This document shows, piece by piece, positions 770 through 63,203 of a stretch of 64,000 nucleotides of DNA. The position numbers and the translations under genes were made by a program. The stretch is from Patescibacteria group bacterium (GTDB lineage Bacteria; Patescibacteriota; UBA1384; XYA2-FULL-43-10; 1-14-0-10-43-13), in the NCBI GenBank assembly GCA_041671645.1, contig JBAZBD010000001.1, positions 85,561 through 149,560 on the forward strand. The letters run 5' to 3'. The notes under the pieces were generated by a model that was given only the letters and a program-made list of their open reading frames with translations, was not told the origin of the DNA and made no database searches. Each line of letters begins with the position of its first letter. The stretch's first letter is position 1.

Positions 770-794
770 GTATAGATACATTTGACTTTCGACT

Positions 795-1421
795 TTAGAC
801 TTTCGACTTTCGACTTAATTTGAGATGTCTCCAGACGTAGAGAACGATCAGAAGTATTACTATCACGAGCATCGCCATATCGAAATTGTGCAATTTGGTC
901 CTGATCGCTTCCCAATTCGCACCCATTTTGACACCGAGCCAGGCGAAAAGCGCCGTCCAGGGCAAAGCGCCCAGGAAGGTATAGATTGAGAAACGCTTAA
1001 AGTTCATCTTGGCGATTCCGGCAGGAAATGAGATATAAGTGCGAATCACTGGTAGGAGTCGGCCAAAGAAAACCGTGGCGTCGCCATATTTCGTGAACCA
1101 CTTGTCGGCTAAATTGAGATCGTGTTTGGAGATCAGGATATATTTGCCGTACTTCTCTATCAGCGGTCTTCCGCCACGATGGCCTATCCAGTAGGCCAGC
1201 CAAGAACCGACCAAATTGCCGAAGGCGCCGAGAAAGGTAATAGCCCAAAAATTCATCTTCCCTTCGGCGACCAGGAATCCGGAGAAAGGCATGATCACTT
1301 CTGATGGCATCGGGATACCGCAAGATTCGACCGTCATGAGCAGGAAGACACCAGAATATCCCATGACATCAATAATATTGATAACTGCTTGGGCCAACGC
1401 ATCGATAATGTTTGTAATCAT
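795..1421 (-). CDS. dedA: DedA/TVP38 family membrane protein
   Basis: VFLLMTVESCGIPMPSEVIMPFSGFLV and GRLLPVIRTYISFPAG are typical DedA motifs in a multi-TM protein. The C-terminus KLSRKSKV is encoded by the GACTTTC tandem repeat. Confidence 0.75.
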   Translation of the reverse strand: MITNIIDALAQAVINIIDVMGYSGVFLLMTVESCGIPMPSEVIMPFSGFLVAEGKMNFWAITFLGAFGNLVGSWLAYWIGHRGGRPLIEKYGKYILISKHDLNLADKWFTKYGDATVFFGRLLPVIRTYISFPAGIAKMNFKRFSIYTFLGALPWTALFAWLGVKMGANWEAIRTKLHNFDMAMLVIVILLIVLYVWRHLKLSRKSKV

Positions 1422-1528
1422 AAGTAGTGTTTCGTATTACGTATTAAGTATTAGGGGGAAATGAAAATTCACTCTTCTAATTCTACTCGATTTGGTTCAT
1501 TTTTTGAAGATGATAACTTACTTACCGT

Positions 1529-2740
1529 TTAGGTTAGTTCCCAGTTTGAATCCACATCAATCTCATCCCAATTCGAAATTTTGCCCTGTTTGATATGATG
1601 ATAAGCCGCCAACCCGATCATAGCCGCATTATCCCCAGTCATGTCTCGAGGCGGAGTCAAAAATTGAATAGTTTTATCTTTCGACTTTATACTTTCAACT
1701 TTCAACTGGATTTGGCTTGCCAGATACTGATTGGCCGAAACTCCTCCAGCGAAAACAACGGTCTTGGGCTGGAACTCCTTGACCGCTCTAGCGGTTTTCG
1801 TCGCCAGTACCTCGGCCACTGCCTCCTCGAAGGCGTACGCAATTTCCTGCTTGATTTCATCTGGAATTTCGGTTGGAGAATTCAAATTCAGTTCTAGGAC
1901 GATATCTTTTGTCTTCTGCAAAACCGAGGTCTTGAGTCCAGAAAAAGAGAAATTATAAGTTCCATCATTCATTACCGGACGCGGGAACACAATAGAGTTT
2001 GGCGTTTGGAGTTTAAAGTTTGGAGTTTCTTCTCCTGACTCCCGGCTCCCGGCTCCCAACCTTCTAAACTCGCAGGCGAGTTTAGAAATCGCTGGTCCCC
2101 CCGGGTAGCCCAGCCCCAGAAGCTTGGCGACCTTGTCATAAGCTTCGCCAACGGCGTCATCGAGTGTCTGACCAAGCGTCTCGTAAATCCCATGATCTTT
2201 CATTAATGTAAGGGACGTATGCCCACCAGAAACAGTCAGGGCAAGAATCGGGAATTGATCATCTGCACTTGATAATTCTCGGCTGAAGGCCGAGTAAATG
2301 TGTCCTTCGATATGATTGATTGGAATTATTGGCAACCCTCTGGCGTAGGCCATAGTTTTCGCTGCATTGAAGCCTACGAGCAGAGAACCGATCAAGCCTG
2401 GCCCAGCGGTGACAGCAATATGAGTAATCCCAGAAAGCTCTTCTATCGCTTCCTGATAATCGGCAGGGCCAACTTCTCGGCCCAATAATAGCGCTTGCGA
2501 GATGACTGGTATAATTGCTTCCATATGAGCGCGACTAGCCACCTCTGGGACGACCCCTCCGGTTTGGGCATGAAGATCAATTTGGGAGGAAATAATATTC
2601 GACAAAATGACAGGTCTAAGGCCTGTCATCCCGGACTTGATCCGGGATCCATCTAATTGCTCTTCAATTACTGCCGCCGCCGTCTCATCACAACTAGTTT
2701 CAATAGCCAGTATGCGAATTTTAGTATTTTTATTATTCAT
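1529..2740 (-). CDS. tsaD: tRNA N6-adenosine threonylcarbamoyltransferase TsaD (Kae1/YgjD family), with low-complexity inserts
   Basis: N-terminus ILAIETSCDETAAAV, plus HIEGHIYSA and GGVSANQYL motifs. It is about 60 aa longer than usual because of repeat-encoded inserts. Confidence 0.9.
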   Translation of the reverse strand: MNNKNTKIRILAIETSCDETAAAVIEEQLDGSRIKSGMTGLRPVILSNIISSQIDLHAQTGGVVPEVASRAHMEAIIPVISQALLLGREVGPADYQEAIEELSGITHIAVTAGPGLIGSLLVGFNAAKTMAYARGLPIIPINHIEGHIYSAFSRELSSADDQFPILALTVSGGHTSLTLMKDHGIYETLGQTLDDAVGEAYDKVAKLLGLGYPGGPAISKLACEFRRLGAGSRESGEETPNFKLQTPNSIVFPRPVMNDGTYNFSFSGLKTSVLQKTKDIVLELNLNSPTEIPDEIKQEIAYAFEEAVAEVLATKTARAVKEFQPKTVVFAGGVSANQYLASQIQLKVESIKSKDKTIQFLTPPRDMTGDNAAMIGLAAYHHIKQGKISNWDEIDVDSNWELT

Positions 2741-2898: not shown

Positions 2899-3885
2899 AT
2901 GTTTCCACCTACCCGCTCTACCTGTTATAATTGTGACATGAACAATATCTTCCAATCCAAAGAGTGGGAGCAGTTTAAACTTGCTACCGGTTACCAGAAG
3001 AGCTACTGGGTTGGTGATATTTTGGTCCTGCAGAAAAATCTGCCCCTAGGCTATTCAATGCTGTACGCGCCGATGGCGAATAGCGAATCTGGAATCTGGA
3101 ATCTAGAATCTGGAATAAAAGAATTTTCGAAACAGATAAGAGAAATAGCGAGGCAAAATAATAGCATTTTCTTTCGCTTGGAGTTTAATGTCCCTGTGGC
3201 TGGACCAAATTCAAAATTCAAAATTCTAGATTCCCGCTTTGGTTTTGCCAAAGCGTTCGAGGAAATGCAGCCAGAGCACACTCTCTTGCTTGATCTCTCC
3301 AAAACAGAAGAGGAATTGCTCTCCGAGATGAAGCAAAAGGGACGCTATAATATCAAAGTGGCAAGCAAAAACGAGGTTAAAATTCATTTTGGGACTAGCC
3401 CTAATGACATCGATAGCTTTTACAATCTTTACGAACAAACAGCCAAACGACACGGCATCACCCATCGAGCCAAAAAATATTTCATCCAGCTAGTTGAAAT
3501 CCTCTCGCAAAAAGGTTACTGTCGTGTTTATACGGCCAAGAAAACGATTGGGGGCAAGGAAACGGATCTGGCCGCTATGATTATGGTTTATTCTGGAGAG
3601 ACCGCGATCTACATGTTTGGCGCCTCAAACGATGACTTCAAGAACACGATGGCGCCGTACCTGATGCAATGGACCGCAATCAGGGATGCGAAAGAAGAGA
3701 AATACAAGAAATATGATTTCTTCGGCATCGCACCAGATGATAATCCAAAGCATCCATGGGCCGGCGTGACCAGGTTCAAACAACAGTTCGGCGGACAAGC
3801 AGCCCAAATTGCCGGTAGCTATGACTTGATCATACAGCCTACGGCCTATCAATTATTTAAAATTGCAGAGAAAATCAGACGATGA
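2899..3885 (+). CDS. FemAB-family peptidoglycan interpeptide-bridge aminoacyltransferase
   Basis: GRYNIKVASKN, AAMIMVYSGETAIYMFGAS and YLMQWTAIRDAKEEKYKKYDFFGI match the FemABX family. Confidence 0.7.
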   Translation: MFPPTRSTCYNCDMNNIFQSKEWEQFKLATGYQKSYWVGDILVLQKNLPLGYSMLYAPMANSESGIWNLESGIKEFSKQIREIARQNNSIFFRLEFNVPVAGPNSKFKILDSRFGFAKAFEEMQPEHTLLLDLSKTEEELLSEMKQKGRYNIKVASKNEVKIHFGTSPNDIDSFYNLYEQTAKRHGITHRAKKYFIQLVEILSQKGYCRVYTAKKTIGGKETDLAAMIMVYSGETAIYMFGASNDDFKNTMAPYLMQWTAIRDAKEEKYKKYDFFGIAPDDNPKHPWAGVTRFKQQFGGQAAQIAGSYDLIIQPTAYQLFKIAEKIRR

Positions 3886-5485: not shown

Positions 5486-6445
5486 CTATTTTTTGCCATG
5501 AAACTTCTGGTGCACTTCTCGCAGGTGCTGGTCGGTCACATGAGTATAAATTTGGGTCGTGGTGATTGATGAGTGGCCAAGCATAGATTGGACACTTCGA
5601 ATATCGGCACCATTGATTAATAGATCGGTTGCAAAAGAATGACGCAGAGTATGAGGCGTGCATTTTTTGGTTATGCCGGCCAATCCAGCGTACTTCTTTA
5701 CAATTCGCTCTATCGAACGAACGGTCAATCTCTCTCCCTTGGGCGATAATAGTAAAGGGTCGAGTGTCGGAGTGTCGGAGTGTCGGAGTGTCGGAGCTTC
5801 TGGCCTCTCTGCCTCTCCGCCTCTGTGCCCTTTGTTTTTATCATACTGATCTATCCAATACACCGCTGAGTCAGAGAGGAAGACAACTCTGATTTTTTTA
5901 CCCTTGCCCAGGACCGATATTTCACCCCGATCGAAATTGATGTCAGAAGTATCGAGCGCCGCCAGCTCAGAGACGCGCATACCAGTCGAGAATAGAACTT
6001 CTAATATTGCTCTGTCACGAAGACCAGTCACTTTGGTCGTATCAGGCTTCTCTAATATTCCAGAGACTTCTTCGCCTCCCAGGAAGCTGATTTCGCGATC
6101 CCCAGTCTTGGCGACGGGCACTTTCTCTGGCGCTAATGTCTCGATCCCGCGCCAGGAAAGATAGCGCAAGAACGCCCGCAGGGCCAAAATGTGATAATTT
6201 TGAGTAATCAATTTTAGTTCTAATCCCTCTTGGTCGGTCAGACGATTGACATGCAGGCGATATTTGCGCACGATTTCCTGAGTAATATTTGCTGGAGTCA
6301 GCTCCGCCCCAGAATTATTTTCCGCAAGATAGTCCAAGAATCGGGAAATATATCGATCATAATTTTCAATTGTCAGAACAGCCCGACCCTTTTCGAGCTC
6401 ACAATGTTCTAGAAATTGTCTTTTGAGTTCTTGCAGCGAAGCCAT
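5486..6445 (-). CDS. xerD: Tyrosine recombinase XerC/XerD family
   Basis: HTLRHSFATDLLINGADIRSVQSMLGHSSITTTQIYTHV catalytic region with an N-terminal core-binding domain. The likely start is MASLQEL at 6445. It contains a tandem-repeat-encoded insert. Confidence 0.85.
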   Translation of the reverse strand: MASLQELKRQFLEHCELEKGRAVLTIENYDRYISRFLDYLAENNSGAELTPANITQEIVRKYRLHVNRLTDQEGLELKLITQNYHILALRAFLRYLSWRGIETLAPEKVPVAKTGDREISFLGGEEVSGILEKPDTTKVTGLRDRAILEVLFSTGMRVSELAALDTSDINFDRGEISVLGKGKKIRVVFLSDSAVYWIDQYDKNKGHRGGEAERPEAPTLRHSDTPTLDPLLLSPKGERLTVRSIERIVKKYAGLAGITKKCTPHTLRHSFATDLLINGADIRSVQSMLGHSSITTTQIYTHVTDQHLREVHQKFHGKK

Positions 6446-32751: not shown

Positions 32752-33861
32752 TTAGGATTCTAGCTTGAGCGGCATGATGATGTAGGTGTAATCCTCATCC
32801 TTTTTACCCTTGAAGACTCCAGCCGACGCATTGTCGTTGAATCCCAAGACGATTTGGTCATCCCCGGCTACAGCGAGGAAATCTAGAATATAGCGTGCGT
32901 TAAATGAGATCTCGAGAACGCCGCCGCTGACTTCAGCCTCAATCTCCGACCTGGCAGAGCCAGCCTGTGAGGCTGCCGACAGAATAGAAATTCCCTTCTC
33001 GCCGACTACAACCTTGATATTATTGTTGGCCGTATCCTTGGCAAAAAGAGAGGACATTTTCACGGCCGAAGCCAATTCGGCTAATTTGACAGTGGCCTTG
33101 ATCTTGGAACTATTGGGGATGATAGCCTGATAATTTGGATACGTACCCTCGATCAAACGTGAGGTGATGTGGGTATCACCGATTAGGAACGAGACTTGGC
33201 TGTCAGAAGATAATATCTTAACCTCTTCGGCGTGCTCGGTCGAAGCCAAAATTCTGAGAACTTCAGTCATGGTCCGGCCAGGGATAATCATGTGGTGCTG
33301 TGCAAACTTGGCGGCTAGTTTGATCTTCTTCTCGGCCAGTCGATAAGAATCAGTGGCGGCTAATATTAATTCATCTTCCTTGACGGAGAAATAAATACCG
33401 GCCAGGACTGGGCGCGTCTCGTCGGTAGCTGGGGCAACTGCTACTTTCTTCAGCGATTCGATAAAAAGGTTTTTGTTAATAACTACTGGTTCGGTCTTAG
33501 GAGCCTCAGGAATAGTTGGGAACTCTTCGGCGGCAATACCTTGGATCTTGGCCTCAAAATGGCTAGACTTGAGCTCTGCGGCCGTCCCGGTGGTGATAAT
33601 CTCAATGGATTCATCCTTATTATTCAAGACAAAGTCAGAGAGAAGCCTTGCGGGAAGAGTAATCTCCCCTTCCTCTTCAACCTTCCCAATAGTCTGGGTG
33701 GTGACGCCAACTTCCAAATCGGTCGCCGAGAATTTTATTTTTCCCTTTTCGGCTTTGATGTGGATATTGGACAAGACTGGCAATGTCGTCCTGGCGCCAA
33801 CTATCCGGCTGGTCGCTCCCAATACTTTAGCGATGTTTGATTGCAAAAGTATCACTTTCAT
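32752..33861 (-). CDS. dnaN: DNA polymerase III beta subunit (sliding clamp)
   Basis: 369 aa in three domains with a typical N-terminus (MKVILLQSNIAKVLGATSRIV) and the synteny dnaA-dnaN-recF. Confidence 0.9.
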   Translation of the reverse strand: MKVILLQSNIAKVLGATSRIVGARTTLPVLSNIHIKAEKGKIKFSATDLEVGVTTQTIGKVEEEGEITLPARLLSDFVLNNKDESIEIITTGTAAELKSSHFEAKIQGIAAEEFPTIPEAPKTEPVVINKNLFIESLKKVAVAPATDETRPVLAGIYFSVKEDELILAATDSYRLAEKKIKLAAKFAQHHMIIPGRTMTEVLRILASTEHAEEVKILSSDSQVSFLIGDTHITSRLIEGTYPNYQAIIPNSSKIKATVKLAELASAVKMSSLFAKDTANNNIKVVVGEKGISILSAASQAGSARSEIEAEVSGGVLEISFNARYILDFLAVAGDDQIVLGFNDNASAGVFKGKKDEDYTYIIMPLKLES

Positions 33862-34273
33862 TTGTTCTCCTATTCTTACTTATCCCCATTTTGGGGTAAA
33901 CCTGTGTCTAACTTAGTTATTTATATTGTTAAATTATCTTCTTCCAGACTATCTTATTTCGCTGAATCTTTTTGGTTGTGGAAAAGTGCAATTTATCACC
34001 AATTCGTTGTGAACAATCCCTCAAGTTATCAGCACTTTCTTTTGACTTTCAACTTTCAACTTTCAACTTTTGAGGTTCTCCCCATCTTTTCCCTAAGTTA
34101 TACCCCCGCTCTTTCCACAGCTTAGATAGGTAATAAGCTTCTCTAGCAATGGCTTATTTGACTTATCCCCTCTGTCCACACCCCTTATTACTACTACTAT
34201 TTATAAAGCATATTGTATATCTAACCCAAAAGGTTTGGATCCCAGTTCAAGCCTGGGATGACACCAAGGGGTG
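33862..34273. promoter_or_regulatory. Candidate oriC segment (dnaA-dnaN intergenic) with multiple DnaA-box-like 9-mers and embedded CAACTTT tandem repeat
   Basis: DnaA-box-like 9-mers are TGTGGAAAA (33977), TTATCACCA (33993), TGTGAACAA (34008), TTATCAGCA (34026), CTTTCCACA (34111) and TGTCCACA (34174). The region is AT-rich. Confidence 0.6.
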
Positions 34274-35662
34274 TCAACTGTAGGAAGTAAATATTCTATC
34301 TTTAATCACTGTCAGATCTTCTTTTAATCTTGGATCAGTAGCAATAGACTTTCCAATCTTCTGTTCTCCATGCATGATAGTGGAGTGATCTTTGCCACCC
34401 ATCTTCCTGCCTATTTCTGGATAGGAGAGGCCACACTCGCTTCGAAGCAGATACATGGTGATCTGTCTGGGGAATACTAATTCTTTTGTTCTTTTCTTGC
34501 CGAGCAAATCCTCGATCGGAATCCGGAAATACTTATGAACCTCACGGATAACTAACTCTGCGGTGACGTGTTGCTGTTTTTCTTCGATAATCGAATCTAA
34601 TATCTTAGCTGTCTGCTCCATATTCAATTCACAGTGCATAAGTTCGCAGGTGGCCAGCACTTTATTGAGAGCACCTTCGAGCTCGCGGACGGATGATTTA
34701 ACTCTCTCTGCGATGAAAGTAATAATCTTGTCGTCAACTTTGAGATTCATCCGCTCAGCTTTTTGTCTCAGAATCGCTTCTCTTGTTTCTAGATCTGGGT
34801 GGCCAATATCGCAAACCATACCGCCTTCAAAACGAGTCTTGAGTCTGATTTCTAGGCCCTTAATATCCTTTGGGACTCTATCCGAAGTCAAAACAACTTG
34901 TTTCTTGTTTTGGTGCAAATGATTGAAGGTGTGGAAGAATTCGTCCTGGGTTTGCTCTTTGGTGGAGAGAAACTGAATATCATCAATTAAAAGTAGGTCG
35001 ACGGTGCGGTATCTGTTTTTGAAATCCTTGGCTTTACCAAAACCTGATCCAACAGCTTGGATGAAGTCATTGGTGAAGGTCTCGGTCGAGACATAGAGGA
35101 CTTTCTTGTCGGGGAAGCGTTTCAGATAGGCGTGGCCGATTGCTTGCATCAGGTGGGTCTTGCCCAGGCCAGAGTCGCCGTAGATAAAGAGTGGATTGTA
35201 TTGCGTTCCTGGTTTTTCTGAGACGGCGTTGGCGGCGGCGAAAGCCAGTTGATTGGAAGGGCCAACTACAAAATTATTGAAGATATAATTATCATTCAGG
35301 GAAGAATTCTGCGGCAAAGGGACGGGGATTTCTCTATCCACAGTTAGGGTAGGTTTATCCACAGGCTTGTGGATAATTACCCCAGATTCGAGGTCTACCA
35401 CCTGGTCGGGGTCTGGGTTGGCGATCTTGAATTTGATCCCCAAAATGGCCTCATCAACCTGATTTTGAAGAGCTTTCTGGATTTCTTTGAGATGCTTCTT
35501 TTTTAGCCAATCTTCGACGAAGAAAGTAGGCACTCCGATCGTAAAAACACCTTTTTTGTAATCAAAAATGAAGGTTCTCTTGAACCAAGTTTCAAAGTTT
35601 GGCTTCGACAGAGTGACCTGAAGTTCGCCCAAAGTGTTTCGCCAGATTTCTGTTAGATCCAT
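34274..35662 (-). CDS. dnaA: Chromosomal replication initiator protein DnaA
   Basis: AAA+ Walker A GDSGLGKTHLMQAIG, box VII, and the C-terminal helix-turn-helix region (KRTKELVFPRQITMYLLRSECGLSYPEIGRKMGGKDHSTIMH). Confidence 0.95.
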   Translation of the reverse strand: MDLTEIWRNTLGELQVTLSKPNFETWFKRTFIFDYKKGVFTIGVPTFFVEDWLKKKHLKEIQKALQNQVDEAILGIKFKIANPDPDQVVDLESGVIIHKPVDKPTLTVDREIPVPLPQNSSLNDNYIFNNFVVGPSNQLAFAAANAVSEKPGTQYNPLFIYGDSGLGKTHLMQAIGHAYLKRFPDKKVLYVSTETFTNDFIQAVGSGFGKAKDFKNRYRTVDLLLIDDIQFLSTKEQTQDEFFHTFNHLHQNKKQVVLTSDRVPKDIKGLEIRLKTRFEGGMVCDIGHPDLETREAILRQKAERMNLKVDDKIITFIAERVKSSVRELEGALNKVLATCELMHCELNMEQTAKILDSIIEEKQQHVTAELVIREVHKYFRIPIEDLLGKKRTKELVFPRQITMYLLRSECGLSYPEIGRKMGGKDHSTIMHGEQKIGKSIATDPRLKEDLTVIKDRIFTSYS

Positions 35663-35928
35663 GATTATCCAATCGGTTATTTCCTAGTCGTAGAAAATAT
35701 AACAAGTTATCCACAAGGAGCGCAATGGTAGGGGCTTCGAGGCATTTATAATCAGCTTCCAGCCGATTGAATTGTTAATTTCTAATTACCCCCAAAGGGG
35801 AGCCTTCGGCTTAATTTCCAATCAATTTATATTTATTAATTAATAATTGAATAAAAATTAAGAACTAAAAAATAAGAATCACTGATTGGGTTGATTTTCT
35901 CTCATCTTTCTGTTATTATCCCTCTGTT
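35663..35928. promoter_or_regulatory. dnaA-rpmH divergent intergenic region with consensus DnaA boxes (dnaA promoter/second oriC module)
   Basis: A perfect TTATCCACA lies at 35707-35715 and TTATCCAAT at 35665-35673. The region also contains the mini-hairpin motif and the AT-rich repeat. Confidence 0.6.
35821..35868. repeat. AT-rich inverted repeat, left copy (flanks rpmH-rnpA-yidD)
   Basis: 35834-35868 is the exact reverse complement of 36782-36816 (35/35). The match extends with one or two mismatches to roughly 48 bp. Confidence 0.8.
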
Positions 35929-36754: not shown

Positions 36755-36781
36755 AGACGAAAGTAGTAAGTTTTTAGTTTC

Positions 36782-36829
36782 TAGTTCTTAATTTTTATTC
36801 AATTATTAATTAATAATTATAAATTGATT
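36782..36829. repeat. AT-rich inverted repeat, right copy
   Basis: tagttcttaatttttattcaattattaattaataa. See the partner at 35821-35868. Confidence 0.8.
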
Positions 36830-36862
36830 AGAAATTAGAAACTAATAAATAGAAATTATTTT

Positions 36863-37747: not shown

Positions 37748-37811
37748 GGATAGTCCAAAGTCTATAAAGTTTGTAAAGTCCATAAAGTCCATAAAGTCGA
37801 AAGCAAAGAAT

Positions 37812-45934: not shown

Positions 45935-46082
45935 ATATACCCTCCACTTCGTCGGAGACGAAGCAATTATCAATTATCAAATATCAATAATCAAATATTA
46001 ATTGTTCACTTGTAAACCTGAAAAATTAAATGCCCTGAAAGGGTCCCTTTGGGAATCATTGACCATTGATACTTGATATTTT

Positions 46083-48918: not shown

Positions 48919-48953
48919 AAATAAACACCTCAGATATCTGAGGTGTTTATTTT
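48919..48953. terminator. Bidirectional rho-independent terminator
   Basis: aaataaacacctcag-atat-ctgaggtgtttattt is a perfect 15-bp stem with flanking A/T runs. Confidence 0.8.
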
Positions 48954-55944: not shown

Positions 55945-56640
55945 TTATAACTCGTCTTTGAGGATGTCGTCGAGCTCTTCGTTGAGCTTAGATAGACGCT
56001 CAGCTTCGTCAGCTGGCTCTTTCTTCTTCGCAACTTTGCGAACTGGCTTAACTTCTTCTTTTACTTCTACAACTGGTTTCTCTTTGACAACTTTTTCTTT
56101 TTTGACTGGTTTGATTTCAGCCTCAACCTTTTCAACCTTAACTTCAGGCTCCTCTGTCTCTTCTTCAGGACTTTCAACTTTCGACTTTGGACTTTCAACT
56201 TCCGTGGCTTCTTCTTTTTCTTCTCTTACGGCCATGAGATCACGACTCTGCTCTGTCTCACCTTCGATTGCCTCAAATGATTTGTGGCCAATCAGGGCTT
56301 CGATCTCTTCGGTTCCTGCAATTTCGTCCTGTGTCAATGTGATTGTCTGGTCTCCGTAATCTTTGACCATCATCAATTGGCGAATGACAGTAGTTTCAAG
56401 TCTAATCTCTCTCTCGAGCTCGCGAGCCTTGTCGGCTGGAAGTGAAAAATAGATAGTAACGTAAGTTGCAAAGTCCTGCTTTTTGATCGTATAGCAGAGT
56501 TTGCGCCGTCCCCAAATGTCCTCTTTGCTGATTTTGCCGCCGAGACCATTAATAAGACCTGCAATTTTGCCGGTCACTTTGTTCAAATCTGTCTCGCGTA
56601 CTTCATCAGAAATCATGTACGTAAGTTCGTACTGTCTCAT
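55945..56640 (-). CDS. rpsF: 30S ribosomal protein S6 with long acidic/lysine-rich C-terminal extension
   Basis: MRQYELTYMISDEV...GKISKEDIWGRRKLCYTIKK is the bS6 core. It is followed by a roughly 120-aa E/K-rich tail that contains a GACTTTC-type tandem repeat. Confidence 0.85.
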   Translation of the reverse strand: MRQYELTYMISDEVRETDLNKVTGKIAGLINGLGGKISKEDIWGRRKLCYTIKKQDFATYVTIYFSLPADKARELEREIRLETTVIRQLMMVKDYGDQTITLTQDEIAGTEEIEALIGHKSFEAIEGETEQSRDLMAVREEKEEATEVESPKSKVESPEEETEEPEVKVEKVEAEIKPVKKEKVVKEKPVVEVKEEVKPVRKVAKKKEPADEAERLSKLNEELDDILKDEL

Positions 56641-56784
56641 GTAATCCTTTCGGCGCTAGCTGGCCCTTTCGGGAGTCCAATTGAGATCGGACGCTAGCTT
56701 CCTTGTCATCAAAGCCAAGGAAAAGTTAATTAATTTAAGCCAATAATAGCACGAAAATCGCTGGTCGTCAATCGTTTGGCACTC

Positions 56785-62204: not shown

Positions 62205-63203
62205 ATGGAAAAGAAAACACTAGTATTGATAGATTCGAACGCGATAATTCATCGCGCTTATCATGCTTTGCCCAAGACGATGTCGACGCGCAAAGGCGAG
62301 CTGACCAATGTTGTCTACGGTTATACCACGACTTTAATCAAAGTTTTGGAGGATTTGAAGCCTGACTACATTGCTGCTTCGTTTGATGTCTCAAAAAACA
62401 CCTTTCGACTGGCAGAATATGCCGAGTACAAAGCCCATCGGGTCAAAGCCGATCAGGAGCTATATGATCAAATCCCTCGAGTCAAGCAATTATTGAACGT
62501 CTTGAGCGTTCCGATATATGAGTTGGAAGGATTTGAGGCTGATGACGTCATCGGCACGATTGCACATATTTGTCAGGAGTCAGGAGTCGGGGGTCAGGAG
62601 AATGGCTCCAAACTCCAAACTCCAAACTCCCTGCATATTTACATCGTGACGGGGGACAAGGACGCATTTCAATTAGTCGACGGTAACATTGAAGTTTATG
62701 ATTTGAAACACGGTCTATCTGACGCACAGATTGTCAATTCGACGGTGATCAAGACGCTCTGGAATTTGGATCCTTACGACTTCATCGATCTCAAGGCTCT
62801 GGCCGGCGATCCCTCTGACAACATCCCGGGCGTGCCAGGGATTGGGCCCAAGACTGCAACTCTTCTTTTGCAAAAATATGACACGTTAGTAGATATATAC
62901 AAGAGAATCGACGAGGGCCTGGAGCTCGACGTTAAACCCAGAATTCTTGGCTTGCTCAAGGAGTACAAAGAGCAAGCATTTCTCTCCCAGCGACTCGCCA
63001 CCATCCGCAAGGACGTACCGCTTGATTTCAAACTGGAAGATTGCCAATGGGGGGACTATGATAAGGATAGCGTCAGGGACTTTTTCGAAGAAATGCAGTT
63101 TAACTCACTGCTTCGACGATTCGGAGCGATCAAAGGCGACATGCCCAAGACCGAGCAATCAAAAGAACAAAAGAAGCAAGATGATCAATTAAAATTGTTA
63201 TAG
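62205..63203 (+). CDS. 5'-3' exonuclease (Pol I N-terminal/FEN-like, stand-alone)
   Basis: LVLIDSNAIIHRAYHALP, GFEADDVIGT, and the H3TH region GDPSDNIPGVPGIGPKTA. It contains a tandem-repeat-encoded insert. Confidence 0.85.
   Translation: MEKKTLVLIDSNAIIHRAYHALPKTMSTRKGELTNVVYGYTTTLIKVLEDLKPDYIAASFDVSKNTFRLAEYAEYKAHRVKADQELYDQIPRVKQLLNVLSVPIYELEGFEADDVIGTIAHICQESGVGGQENGSKLQTPNSLHIYIVTGDKDAFQLVDGNIEVYDLKHGLSDAQIVNSTVIKTLWNLDPYDFIDLKALAGDPSDNIPGVPGIGPKTATLLLQKYDTLVDIYKRIDEGLELDVKPRILGLLKEYKEQAFLSQRLATIRKDVPLDFKLEDCQWGDYDKDSVRDFFEEMQFNSLLRRFGAIKGDMPKTEQSKEQKKQDDQLKLL

Follow-up and report, generated by a model that had tools for sequence, protein, structure and literature searches.

The stretch of DNA considered here, referred to throughout as the window, covers 64 kb of an 868-kb contig (JBAZBD010000001.1) from a Patescibacteria group bacterium of the Candidate Phyla Radiation (CPR). 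Our subject is the gene tsaD near its left end, together with the tandem arrays of 7-nt units (heptamers) that lie within this gene and recur across the window. The host open reading frame (ORF) is a member of the TsaD/Kae1 family, matching the family profile and solved structures over its full length and confirming the identity given in an earlier note on this sequence: Pfam PF00814 is matched at 2.9e-78 (profile positions 2-263 of 264) and solved bacterial TsaD chains in the PDB match amino acids (aa) 7-392 at 3.5e-64 to 1.5e-58. The protein is 100% identical to NCBI MFA6963173.1, from a Patescibacteria metagenome-assembled genome, and the peptides GAGSRESGEETPNFK and LQTPNSIVFPRPVMNDGTYNFSFSGLK are predicted from the sequence to form part of it. 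An AlphaFold2 model based on 28 homologues has a mean predicted local distance difference test score (pLDDT) of 83 and a predicted template modelling score of 0.82, and aa 1-3, 33-37 and 233-246 are the only parts of it where pLDDT is under 50.

The earlier note described heptamer arrays at two places within tsaD and regarded both as low-complexity inserts that keep the frame because three 7-bp units make 21 bp. The arrays sit where they were placed and Tandem Repeats Finder (TRF) recovers three of period 7 (Table 1), the third of which reaches back to position 2032 with one variant unit in a separate period scan (2032-2057, about 3.7 units). The peptides quoted at the time, QLKVESIKSKD (aa 345-355) and GAGSRESGEETPNFKLQTPNS (aa 229-249), are correct. 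The 21-bp rule fails, since the real arrays measure 30, 34 and 19-26 bp and include partial units; it is therefore the segment as a whole whose net length keeps the frame. The description as inserts is right for 1995-2057 and wrong for 1678-1707. Opposite query residues 226-249, E. coli TsaD has a gap of 20 residues and two other solved chains are gapped similarly, making 1995-2057 a lineage-specific insert, and the model places it in a predicted disordered loop with pLDDT below 50 at aa 233-246 and no secondary structure. This segment is a true insert of approximately 20 residues, modelled as a disordered loop. The residues of array 1, at 1678-1707, align to native residues of solved TsaD proteins and of CPR homologues, with a gain in length of only about three residues relative to close homologues, and in the model they lie in native helix 338-351 and the loop that follows, where 10-residue blocks over aa 341-360 have mean pLDDT of 94 and 78. 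Array 1 is a repeat that overwrites the end of a native surface helix, and not an insert.

Table 1. Coordinates of tsaD, of repeat arrays and of palindromes in the window.
Feature	Position	Strand	Details
DedA-tail array, (GAAAGTC)n	784..816	minus	TRF x4.7; C-terminal tail and stop of DedA/VTT gene; array 1 unit family
(CGTATTA)x3	1433..1453	.	intergenic, tsaD/DedA; 4-nt overlap into stop-to-stop DedA ORF
tsaD coding sequence, 403 aa	1529..2740	minus	from ORF list; hosts three arrays and one twin-hairpin insert
tsaD array 1	1678..1707	minus	TRF period 7 x4.3, CTTTCAA, 82% matches; coding strand GTTGAAA GTTGAAA GTATAAA GTCGAAA, encoding QLKVESIKSKD, aa 345-355
tsaD array 2	1995..2028	minus	TRF period 7 x4.9, GAGTTTG, 77% matches; coding strand (CAAACTC)n, cyclic peptide KLQTPNS; same unit family as 62606-62630
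tsaD array 3	2039..2057	minus	TRF period 7 x2.7, CTCCCGG, 100% matches
tsaD array 3, coding strand	2032..2057	minus	(GGGAGYC)n, encoding GAGSRESG
Perfect 12-bp palindrome	2062..2087	.	TTCTAAACTCGC / GCGAGTTTAGAA; in native SKLACEFR codons, adjoining the composite insert
Twin small hairpins	2609..2648	minus	GACAGG-7 nt-CCTGTC and ATCCCGGA-5 nt-TCCGGGAT; palindromic, non-heptameric
FemAB array A, (GAATCTG)x4.6	3085..3116	+	in FemAB-family gene, encodes SESGIWNLESGI; orthologous array in L005
FemAB array B, (AAATTCA)n	3207..3233	+	in FemAB-family gene, encodes PNSKFKILDS; partly complementary to 3085-3116
Period-8 composite, (GAGTGTCG)x4.4 + (GCCTCTCT)x3.4	5762..5829	minus	TRF; within XerC/D-like tyrosine recombinase gene
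(ACTTTCA)x3.7	34045..34070	.	intergenic, dnaN to dnaA; array 1 unit family
(CAATTAT)n	45964..45994	.	mostly intergenic, upstream of solute-binding protein gene
(CGAAAGT)n	56170..56201	minus	C-terminal extension of ribosomal protein S6, encodes VESPKSKVES
Exonuclease composite, (GTCAGGA)n - loop - (CTCCAAA)n	62572..62630	+	TRF; in 5'-3' exonuclease gene, encodes QESGVGGQENGSKLQTPNS

The arrays of tsaD are not peculiar to that gene, and the earlier note overlooked their counterparts in the genes nearby. When tandem arrays with a score of at least 10 were counted and compared with shuffled sequence, the window was found to contain 12 of period 7 against 0.1 in shuffles, and every other period from 4 to 15, with the exception of 14 (twice 7), gave 0-2. 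Eight of the 12 fall wholly within ORFs. All genic arrays are in frame and leave their ORFs intact, and for eight of nine the coding strand specifies a hydrophilic peptide rich in K, E, S, Q, N and P, the opposite strand being hydrophobic or containing stops; in other words, genic arrays keep one open frame with the gene and the strand used is nearly always that with a hydrophilic, stop-free heptapeptide. Unit families recur within the genome: AAAGTYG occurs four times (in the DedA tail, tsaD, the dnaN-dnaA spacer and S6) and AAACTCC twice. At the DedA C-terminus, which reads LKLSRKSKV, the TAA stop codon is itself part of a variant unit. Rfam and tRNA scans of the window returned only four tRNAs and no structured RNA overlapping the arrays.

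When single genomes representing each species were scanned for close relatives of this TsaD, four loci were found, and syntenic contigs were then gathered through exact-protein look-ups. The resulting clade set comprises the window and nine syntenic CPR loci (199 kb), the relatives' TsaD proteins being 55-70% identical to that of the window. It contains 72 arrays of period 7, compared with 11 of period 8, seven of period 12 and six each of periods 6 and 9. A control locus from Chloroflexota (L004) has no period-7 array in 21 kb, and one syntenic relative, L014, has a 373-aa TsaD without these inserts and just two arrays in 21 kb. Period 7 is thus the strongly preferred unit length, both in genes and between them, and the repeats characterise the genome and the clade rather than tsaD. 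The AAAGTYG family of the window is found also in the tsaD of relative L008, a locus with about eight arrays of AAGGNNN units; across genomes unit families are seen in both orientations, and the arrays are concentrated in a few genes.

CPR homologues of TsaD range from 348 to 526 aa, and their differences in length are confined to approximately six fixed sites, or hot spots. In the window and in relatives L005, L006 and L008 these sites contain differing arrays or palindromes. At hot spot 4, the site of 1995-2057, L005 has (AATTTCT)n...(CCAAATT)n and L006 a period-8 element; at hot spot 6, the site of array 1, the window and L008 have GTTGAAA units in common and L005, the closer relative, has GAATCTA. 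The stop codon of DedA lies inside an array in three genomes, of related units AGTCGAA (window), AGTAGAA (L011) and AAAAGCG (L006), which is the pattern that would be expected if a long-lived array had undergone concerted evolution in place. The same variable protein positions therefore bear arrays of different or related units in different relatives. If array 1 were a perfect GTTGAAA repeat it would introduce an in-frame TGA, which the window escapes through GTATAAA and L008 through GTGAAAA. That the two genomes avoid the stop by different changes shows directly that ribosomes read the arrays and that selection polices them.

In L008 a gene for an IS200-like Y1 transposase (L008 9268-10001; PF01797, 2.2e-16) stands 20 bp upstream of tsaD between 17-nt inverted repeats, GGGGACGGTTCTCTTTT and AAAAGAGAACCGTCCCC, whose sequence bears no relation to the heptamer arrays. 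Beyond the clade, (GAAAGTC)3 was found in 43 viral contigs and (GGAGTTT)3 in 11; most have that single array and so are uninformative on this clade. Four IMG/VR contigs that are labelled viral (L016, L024, L039 and L048; GC 0.61-0.69) have five to seven different heptamer arrays each and almost none of other periods, so that heptamer-rich genomes exist in other lineages as well.

Arrays 2 and 3 of tsaD are inverted partners and form one imperfect hairpin element at hot spot 4. On the coding strand this composite reads (GGGAGYC)3-4, then GGAGAAGAAA, then four CTCCAAA-like units; its arms pair GGAG with CTCC and leave two to three bases unpaired in each unit, array 3 being the 5' arm and array 2 the 3' arm of the mRNA. 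The fold of 1985-2070 has -25.8 kcal/mol on the + strand (z -2.3) and -22.4 kcal/mol on the coding strand (z -0.9). A sibling in the 5'-3' exonuclease gene has 81% column identity with it over the core and unrelated flanks, and is a cleaner ladder hairpin (-31.9 kcal/mol, z -4.4 for 62560-62640). The exonuclease also appears extended at its domain match, 169 protein residues covering 150 positions of the 5_3_exonuc_N profile, with some 19 extra residues. Both composites agree in orientation and frame, so that either protein contains ...ESG...KLQTPNS, and it is sufficient explanation of this that the opposite orientation puts TGA in frame. A metagenome search for the composite junction, GTCAGGAGAAN{3,4}CTCCAAACT, gave nine matches, which is chance level, and none with flanking arrays. 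The period-8 composite in the recombinase gene, whose product has a Phage_integrase domain (9.1e-44), also folds well (5750-5840; -37.2 kcal/mol and z -3.6 on the + strand). Of the 72 heptamer arrays, 17 have a complementary partner no more than 60 nt away, compared with six in each of two controls; inverted pairs are hence genuine but in the minority, and the majority of arrays stand alone, as does array 1 (fold z +0.5).

A third insert in TsaD, missing from the earlier note, is not heptameric. The twin hairpins of Table 1 encode most of a 13-aa insert, SRIKSGMTGLR, at hot spot 1 (aa 31-43), with pLDDT below 50 at aa 33-37. It is present in the window, L005, L006, L008, L011 and L012, and absent from L010, L013 and L014. 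In L006 and L012 its stem has double changes that compensate one another, its loop contains a nested insertion in L011, and the 30-nt stretch over hairpin 1 is identical to L005 at all 30 positions, making this the most conserved 30-mer of the gene. At the SKLACEFR codons, where the window has a perfect 12-bp palindrome, L008 has a different and also perfect one of 10 bp, and hot spots 2 and 5 of the L008 tsaD (L008 10001-11464) contain other translated palindromic inserts, for example CCCTCACCCTAACCCTCTCCC...GGGAGAGGGTTGGGGTGAGGG, encoding PHPNPLPVKRGDG...GEGWGEG. A GC-rich palindrome, AGCCCCAAAGGGGCC/GGCCCCTTCGGGGCT, occurs at 2793-2818 in the spacer between the divergent tsaD and femAB genes, and a perfect, loopless palindrome of 17 bp at 48919-48952. 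In the FemAB gene itself, arrays A and B (window 3085-3233; L005 1939-2088) pair with one another in the minimum free energy (MFE) fold of both genomes, around some 95 nt of coding sequence that is conserved, and in the window this pairing includes a perfect 12-bp match, GGAATCTAGAAT/ATTCTAGATTCC, that uses variant units of both arrays.

Heptamer repeats are already known from other bacteria, and the CPR arrays can be compared with each of these systems in turn. As summarised by MacGregor (2015; PMC4679880), Mrazek et al. (2007) reported heptanucleotides as the most abundant class of long simple sequence repeats (LSSRs) in genomes rich in 5-11-nt repeats, proposed polymerase slippage with a footprint of about 7 nt, and found units with a length divisible by three to be likeliest in coding regions. 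The CPR arrays resemble heptanucleotide LSSRs (Mrazek, Guo & Shah 2007) in being short, in the dominance of 7-nt units and in their occurrence in scattered lineages, and they differ in that 8/12 are wholly genic and include essential housekeeping genes. Head-to-tail copies exceed chance expectation (12 against 0.1 at a score of at least 10), and period 7 dominates in the window (12 versus 0-2) and the clade (72 versus no more than 11). As regards copy number, near-identical contig pairs are identical in their arrays, and between species a given site differs both in its unit sequence and in how long the array is. Within the limited library searched, we found no literature linking heptamer repeats to CPR or Patescibacteria.

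The STRRs (short tandemly repeated repetitive elements) of cyanobacteria offer a second comparison. Several STRR unit families per genome are said to have been described by Mazel et al. in 1990, and Vioque in 1997 reportedly found a case within a functional RNA gene. STRRs are hairpin-capable repeats of 7 bp whose function is unknown (PMC2670836). The CPR arrays share with them tandem 7-bp units and several unit families per genome; however, STRRs are mainly intergenic and belong to heterocyst-forming cyanobacteria, whereas the arrays described here are mostly translated, have other units and occur in an unrelated phylum. The ability to form hairpins is seen in the composites and approximately one quarter of arrays, and not in solitary arrays, of which 1678-1707 is one. 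In Geobacter metallireducens there are 49 GGGACCG elements of four units each, both genic and intergenic (PMC2700814), which are similar in copy number and mixed distribution; these constitute one GC-rich family that can be aligned by BLAST, while here there are many unrelated units of which only some recur. The TAACTGA repeats of Beggiatoaceae, cyanobacteria and Bacteroidetes (MacGregor 2015; PMC4679880), whose insertions in proteins survive mainly at the periphery, are likewise dispersed heptamer direct repeats, of two to six copies, some of them over stop codons or protein termini. They have a single unit, mostly lie just 5' of start codons and in forward orientation provide stops in all frames, unlike the diverse and mostly ORF-internal units found here.

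Rickettsia palindromic elements (RPEs) are in-frame repeats in unrelated housekeeping genes, translated and compatible with protein folding (PMC10969869), and the inserts at tsaD hot spot 4 and in the exonuclease are similarly in frame, in unrelated genes and at permissive sites. RPEs are about 150 bp long and form families with a conserved peptide and no internal heptamer periodicity, whereas the composites are about 60 bp and most arrays are non-palindromic. A family of 100-150 bp with a consensus and a peptide, as in RPEs or miniature inverted-repeat transposable elements, was not seen: the elements measure 20-65 bp and only the two composites share sequence. Nor do the arrays resemble phase-variable contingency loci, in which a simple repeat at the promoter or 5' coding end of a surface or virulence gene turns the frame on and off; their hosts are housekeeping genes (tsaD, femAB-like, xerC/D-like, rpsF and 5'-3' exonuclease), all in frame. 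The CPR arrays, then, share the defining features of heptanucleotide simple sequence repeats (SSRs), and lack the taxonomic range and location of STRRs and the length and consensus of RPEs. The phenomenon is real but ordinary in kind, for the repeat class is already known and still unexplained, and what is new is the CPR lineage and the mostly genic location.

Taken together, we think it probable that the tsaD arrays are members of a genome- and clade-wide population of heptanucleotide SSRs in this CPR lineage, made by slippage, translated, and filtered by selection. Under this explanation, slipped-strand mispairing at replication would account for the birth, expansion, contraction and homogenisation of arrays; inverted partners, such as 1995-2028 with 2032-2057, could arise by intrastrand template switching or ectopic copying, and dispersed copies likewise. 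Purifying selection would purge those arrays that break the frame, add a stop or fall in a structurally intolerant place, and the survivors would be translated into filler, short stretches that are disordered or form surface helix, wherever a housekeeping protein has a permissive site. Structural tolerance is evident in the two tsaD segments described above. Since 7 and 3 have no common divisor, a heptamer array cycles through one and the same heptapeptide whichever frame is read, and so only the strand and stop codons matter, allowing easy survival in coding DNA. Two other notions were dropped: coiled-coil heptads encoded by 21-nt units, given that the length of the arrays amounts to no more than some 1.5 heptads and that disorder is predicted for the insert, and removal of the inserts from RNA, given that every insert is in frame and free of stops.

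Several observations sit awkwardly with slippage and selection. The distribution of arrays is uneven, 7/12 falling in the first 6.6 kb of the window (binomial P = 6e-5), and uniform slippage predicts no clustering. Near-identical contig pairs (L006/L007 and L008/L009) show zero and three differences, none of them in arrays. The same composite of about 60 nt, junction included, occurs in two genes 60 kb apart, for which slippage alone is insufficient, and the tsaD of L006 has one period-8 element at both hot spots 3 and 4. FemAB arrays A and B are identical to L005 at 29/30 and 27/30 positions, beyond what neutral slippage predicts; third-position identity between these genomes at conserved residues is 0.37-0.52 (0.52 in the FemAB gene), and both arrays, like the hot-spot-1 hairpin, count among the best-conserved 30-mers in their genes. 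Finally, the cause of the 7-nt preference appears not to have been established in any organism. The nucleotide conservation of some arrays far above synonymous sites, and the dispersed composites, are out of line with simple neutral slippage. This conservation, together with the compensatory stems and the pairing of the FemAB arrays, keeps alive two alternatives, that is, a mobile hairpin and a functional signal.

According to the first, the tsaD composite would be a miniature mobile hairpin, similar to RPEs or to repetitive extragenic palindromic (REP) sequences and their paired forms (REPINs), copied in trans by an enzyme into permissive loops, the heptamers being a feature of its arms. Such an element would produce the two 81%-identical copies, whose host genes and flanks are unrelated, the recurrence of a period-8 element at two hot spots of the L006 tsaD, and the nested insertion in the hot-spot-1 hairpin loop of L011; the ladder folds that beat shuffles (z -4.4 for 62560-62640, -3.6 for 5750-5840 and -2.3 for the tsaD copy), the excess of arrays with a complementary partner within 60 nt (17/72 versus six per control) and the Y1 transposase with inverted repeats next to tsaD in L008 are also in its favour. 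Yet about three quarters of arrays are solitary, without a hairpin partner, and the units are highly diverse rather than belonging to a few conserved consensus families. Array 1 of tsaD and both FemAB arrays overwrite native segments with almost no net gain in length, no target-site duplications or defined termini were seen, and the junction scan of metagenomes returned only its nine chance-level matches with no adjoining arrays. Moreover, tblastn gave no match to a Y1 transposase or REP-associated tyrosine transposase (RAYT) within the window, which lacks the repeat-flanked Y1 gene of REP/REPIN systems. We regard the mobile hairpin as unlikely.

A broader proposal, to which we would give less credence again, is that the heptamer arrays and small hairpins are both kept and spread by a dedicated system, for example a hairpin-recognising Y1 transposase or a protein binding DNA or RNA of 7-nt periodicity, and act as signals in essential mRNAs. 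It would explain conservation above synonymous sites, compensatory stems, dispersed identical composites and tight clustering together and, if true, these would be a CPR counterpart of RPE/REPIN elements living mainly inside coding sequence.

Doubtful to a slightly greater degree is the view that the arrays and hairpins are selected nucleic-acid signals, affecting mRNA decay, ribosome speed or periodic protein binding, with the peptide as a by-product. The identity to L005 at 29/30 and 27/30 positions of the FemAB arrays and at 30/30 of the hot-spot-1 hairpin, set against third-position identity of 0.37-0.52, is what such selection would produce, as are the compensatory stem changes in L006 and L012 (template switching can mimic such covariation without selection, however) and the pairing of FemAB arrays in the MFE folds of both species, with its perfect 12-bp match between variant units. 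There is precedent in the suggestion that 7-bp STRR hairpins of cyanobacteria affect transcript stability or translational coupling (PMC2670836). Conversely, the arrays at hot spots 4 and 6 differ wholly between the window and its closest relative, L005, with no sequence kept; the mRNA-strand fold of the tsaD composite is no better than shuffles (z -0.9), most arrays have no pairing partner, and L014, with its 373-aa TsaD and two arrays in 21 kb, does without the inserts, which are hence dispensable.

It is very improbable that the inserts are adaptive at the protein level, as CPR-specific surface loops of TsaD for a new interaction, with the DNA periodicity incidental. Their fixed surface positions in many CPR homologues (348 to 526 aa) and hydrophilic peptides would be consistent with such a role, but the peptides of close relatives are unrelated at a given hot spot and no conserved hot-spot motif across lineages is present in the homologues compared; the same DNA units occur between genes and in unrelated proteins, the 7-nt period is not a codon multiple, the inserts are predicted to be disordered, and some relatives lack them. 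That the repeats are assembly or sequencing artefacts deserves practically no belief despite the capacity of short-read assemblers to mis-size tandem repeats, because arrays of 19-34 bp are below read length, every gene is left in frame, assemblies made independently in different projects (ENA, JGI and Logan) have arrays at orthologous positions, and contig pairs assembled independently agree in them.

Some further features of the window are recorded here. Ribosomal protein S6 (55945-56655) has an acidic C-terminal extension of about 140 aa past the S6 domain (aa 8-95), and this extension holds the heptamer array. No heptamer array occurs in a 24-kb block of very large ORFs (7500-31300), two of which (709 and 3164 aa) gave no match to Pfam. 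The genes dnaN (32752-33879) and dnaA (34274-35683) are both on the minus strand, and a block of AT-rich repeats and palindromes at 36769-36858 may be an origin region. Directly upstream of tRNA-Ser (37812), at 37757-37798, is a period-9 repeat, AAAGTCTAT x4.7. At 67-729 the N-terminus of a Phd/YefM-like antitoxin is fused to a tail of about 170 aa rich in Pro, Thr and Ala; a Phd/YefM Pfam match is recorded for its syntenic orthologues, the window copy having none at E <= 0.001, and the gene adjoins the DedA and tsaD genes in synteny in all relatives examined.

Housekeeping proteins of CPR bacteria are often longer than their homologues and contain odd, low-complexity segments. In at least one CPR clade, much of this extra length is written by a DNA repeat process of 7 nt and not by innovation at the protein level, with consequences for the annotation of CPR genomes, the trimming of alignments, phylogenomics and structure prediction. 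Arrays of fixed position and evolving units could serve as strain markers. A deeply divergent lineage with tiny genomes joins the bacteria in which heptamers dominate, among them cyanobacteria, Beggiatoaceae, Geobacter and Burkholderia, and its compact genome of about 0.87 Mb could ease the search for the factors behind the number seven.

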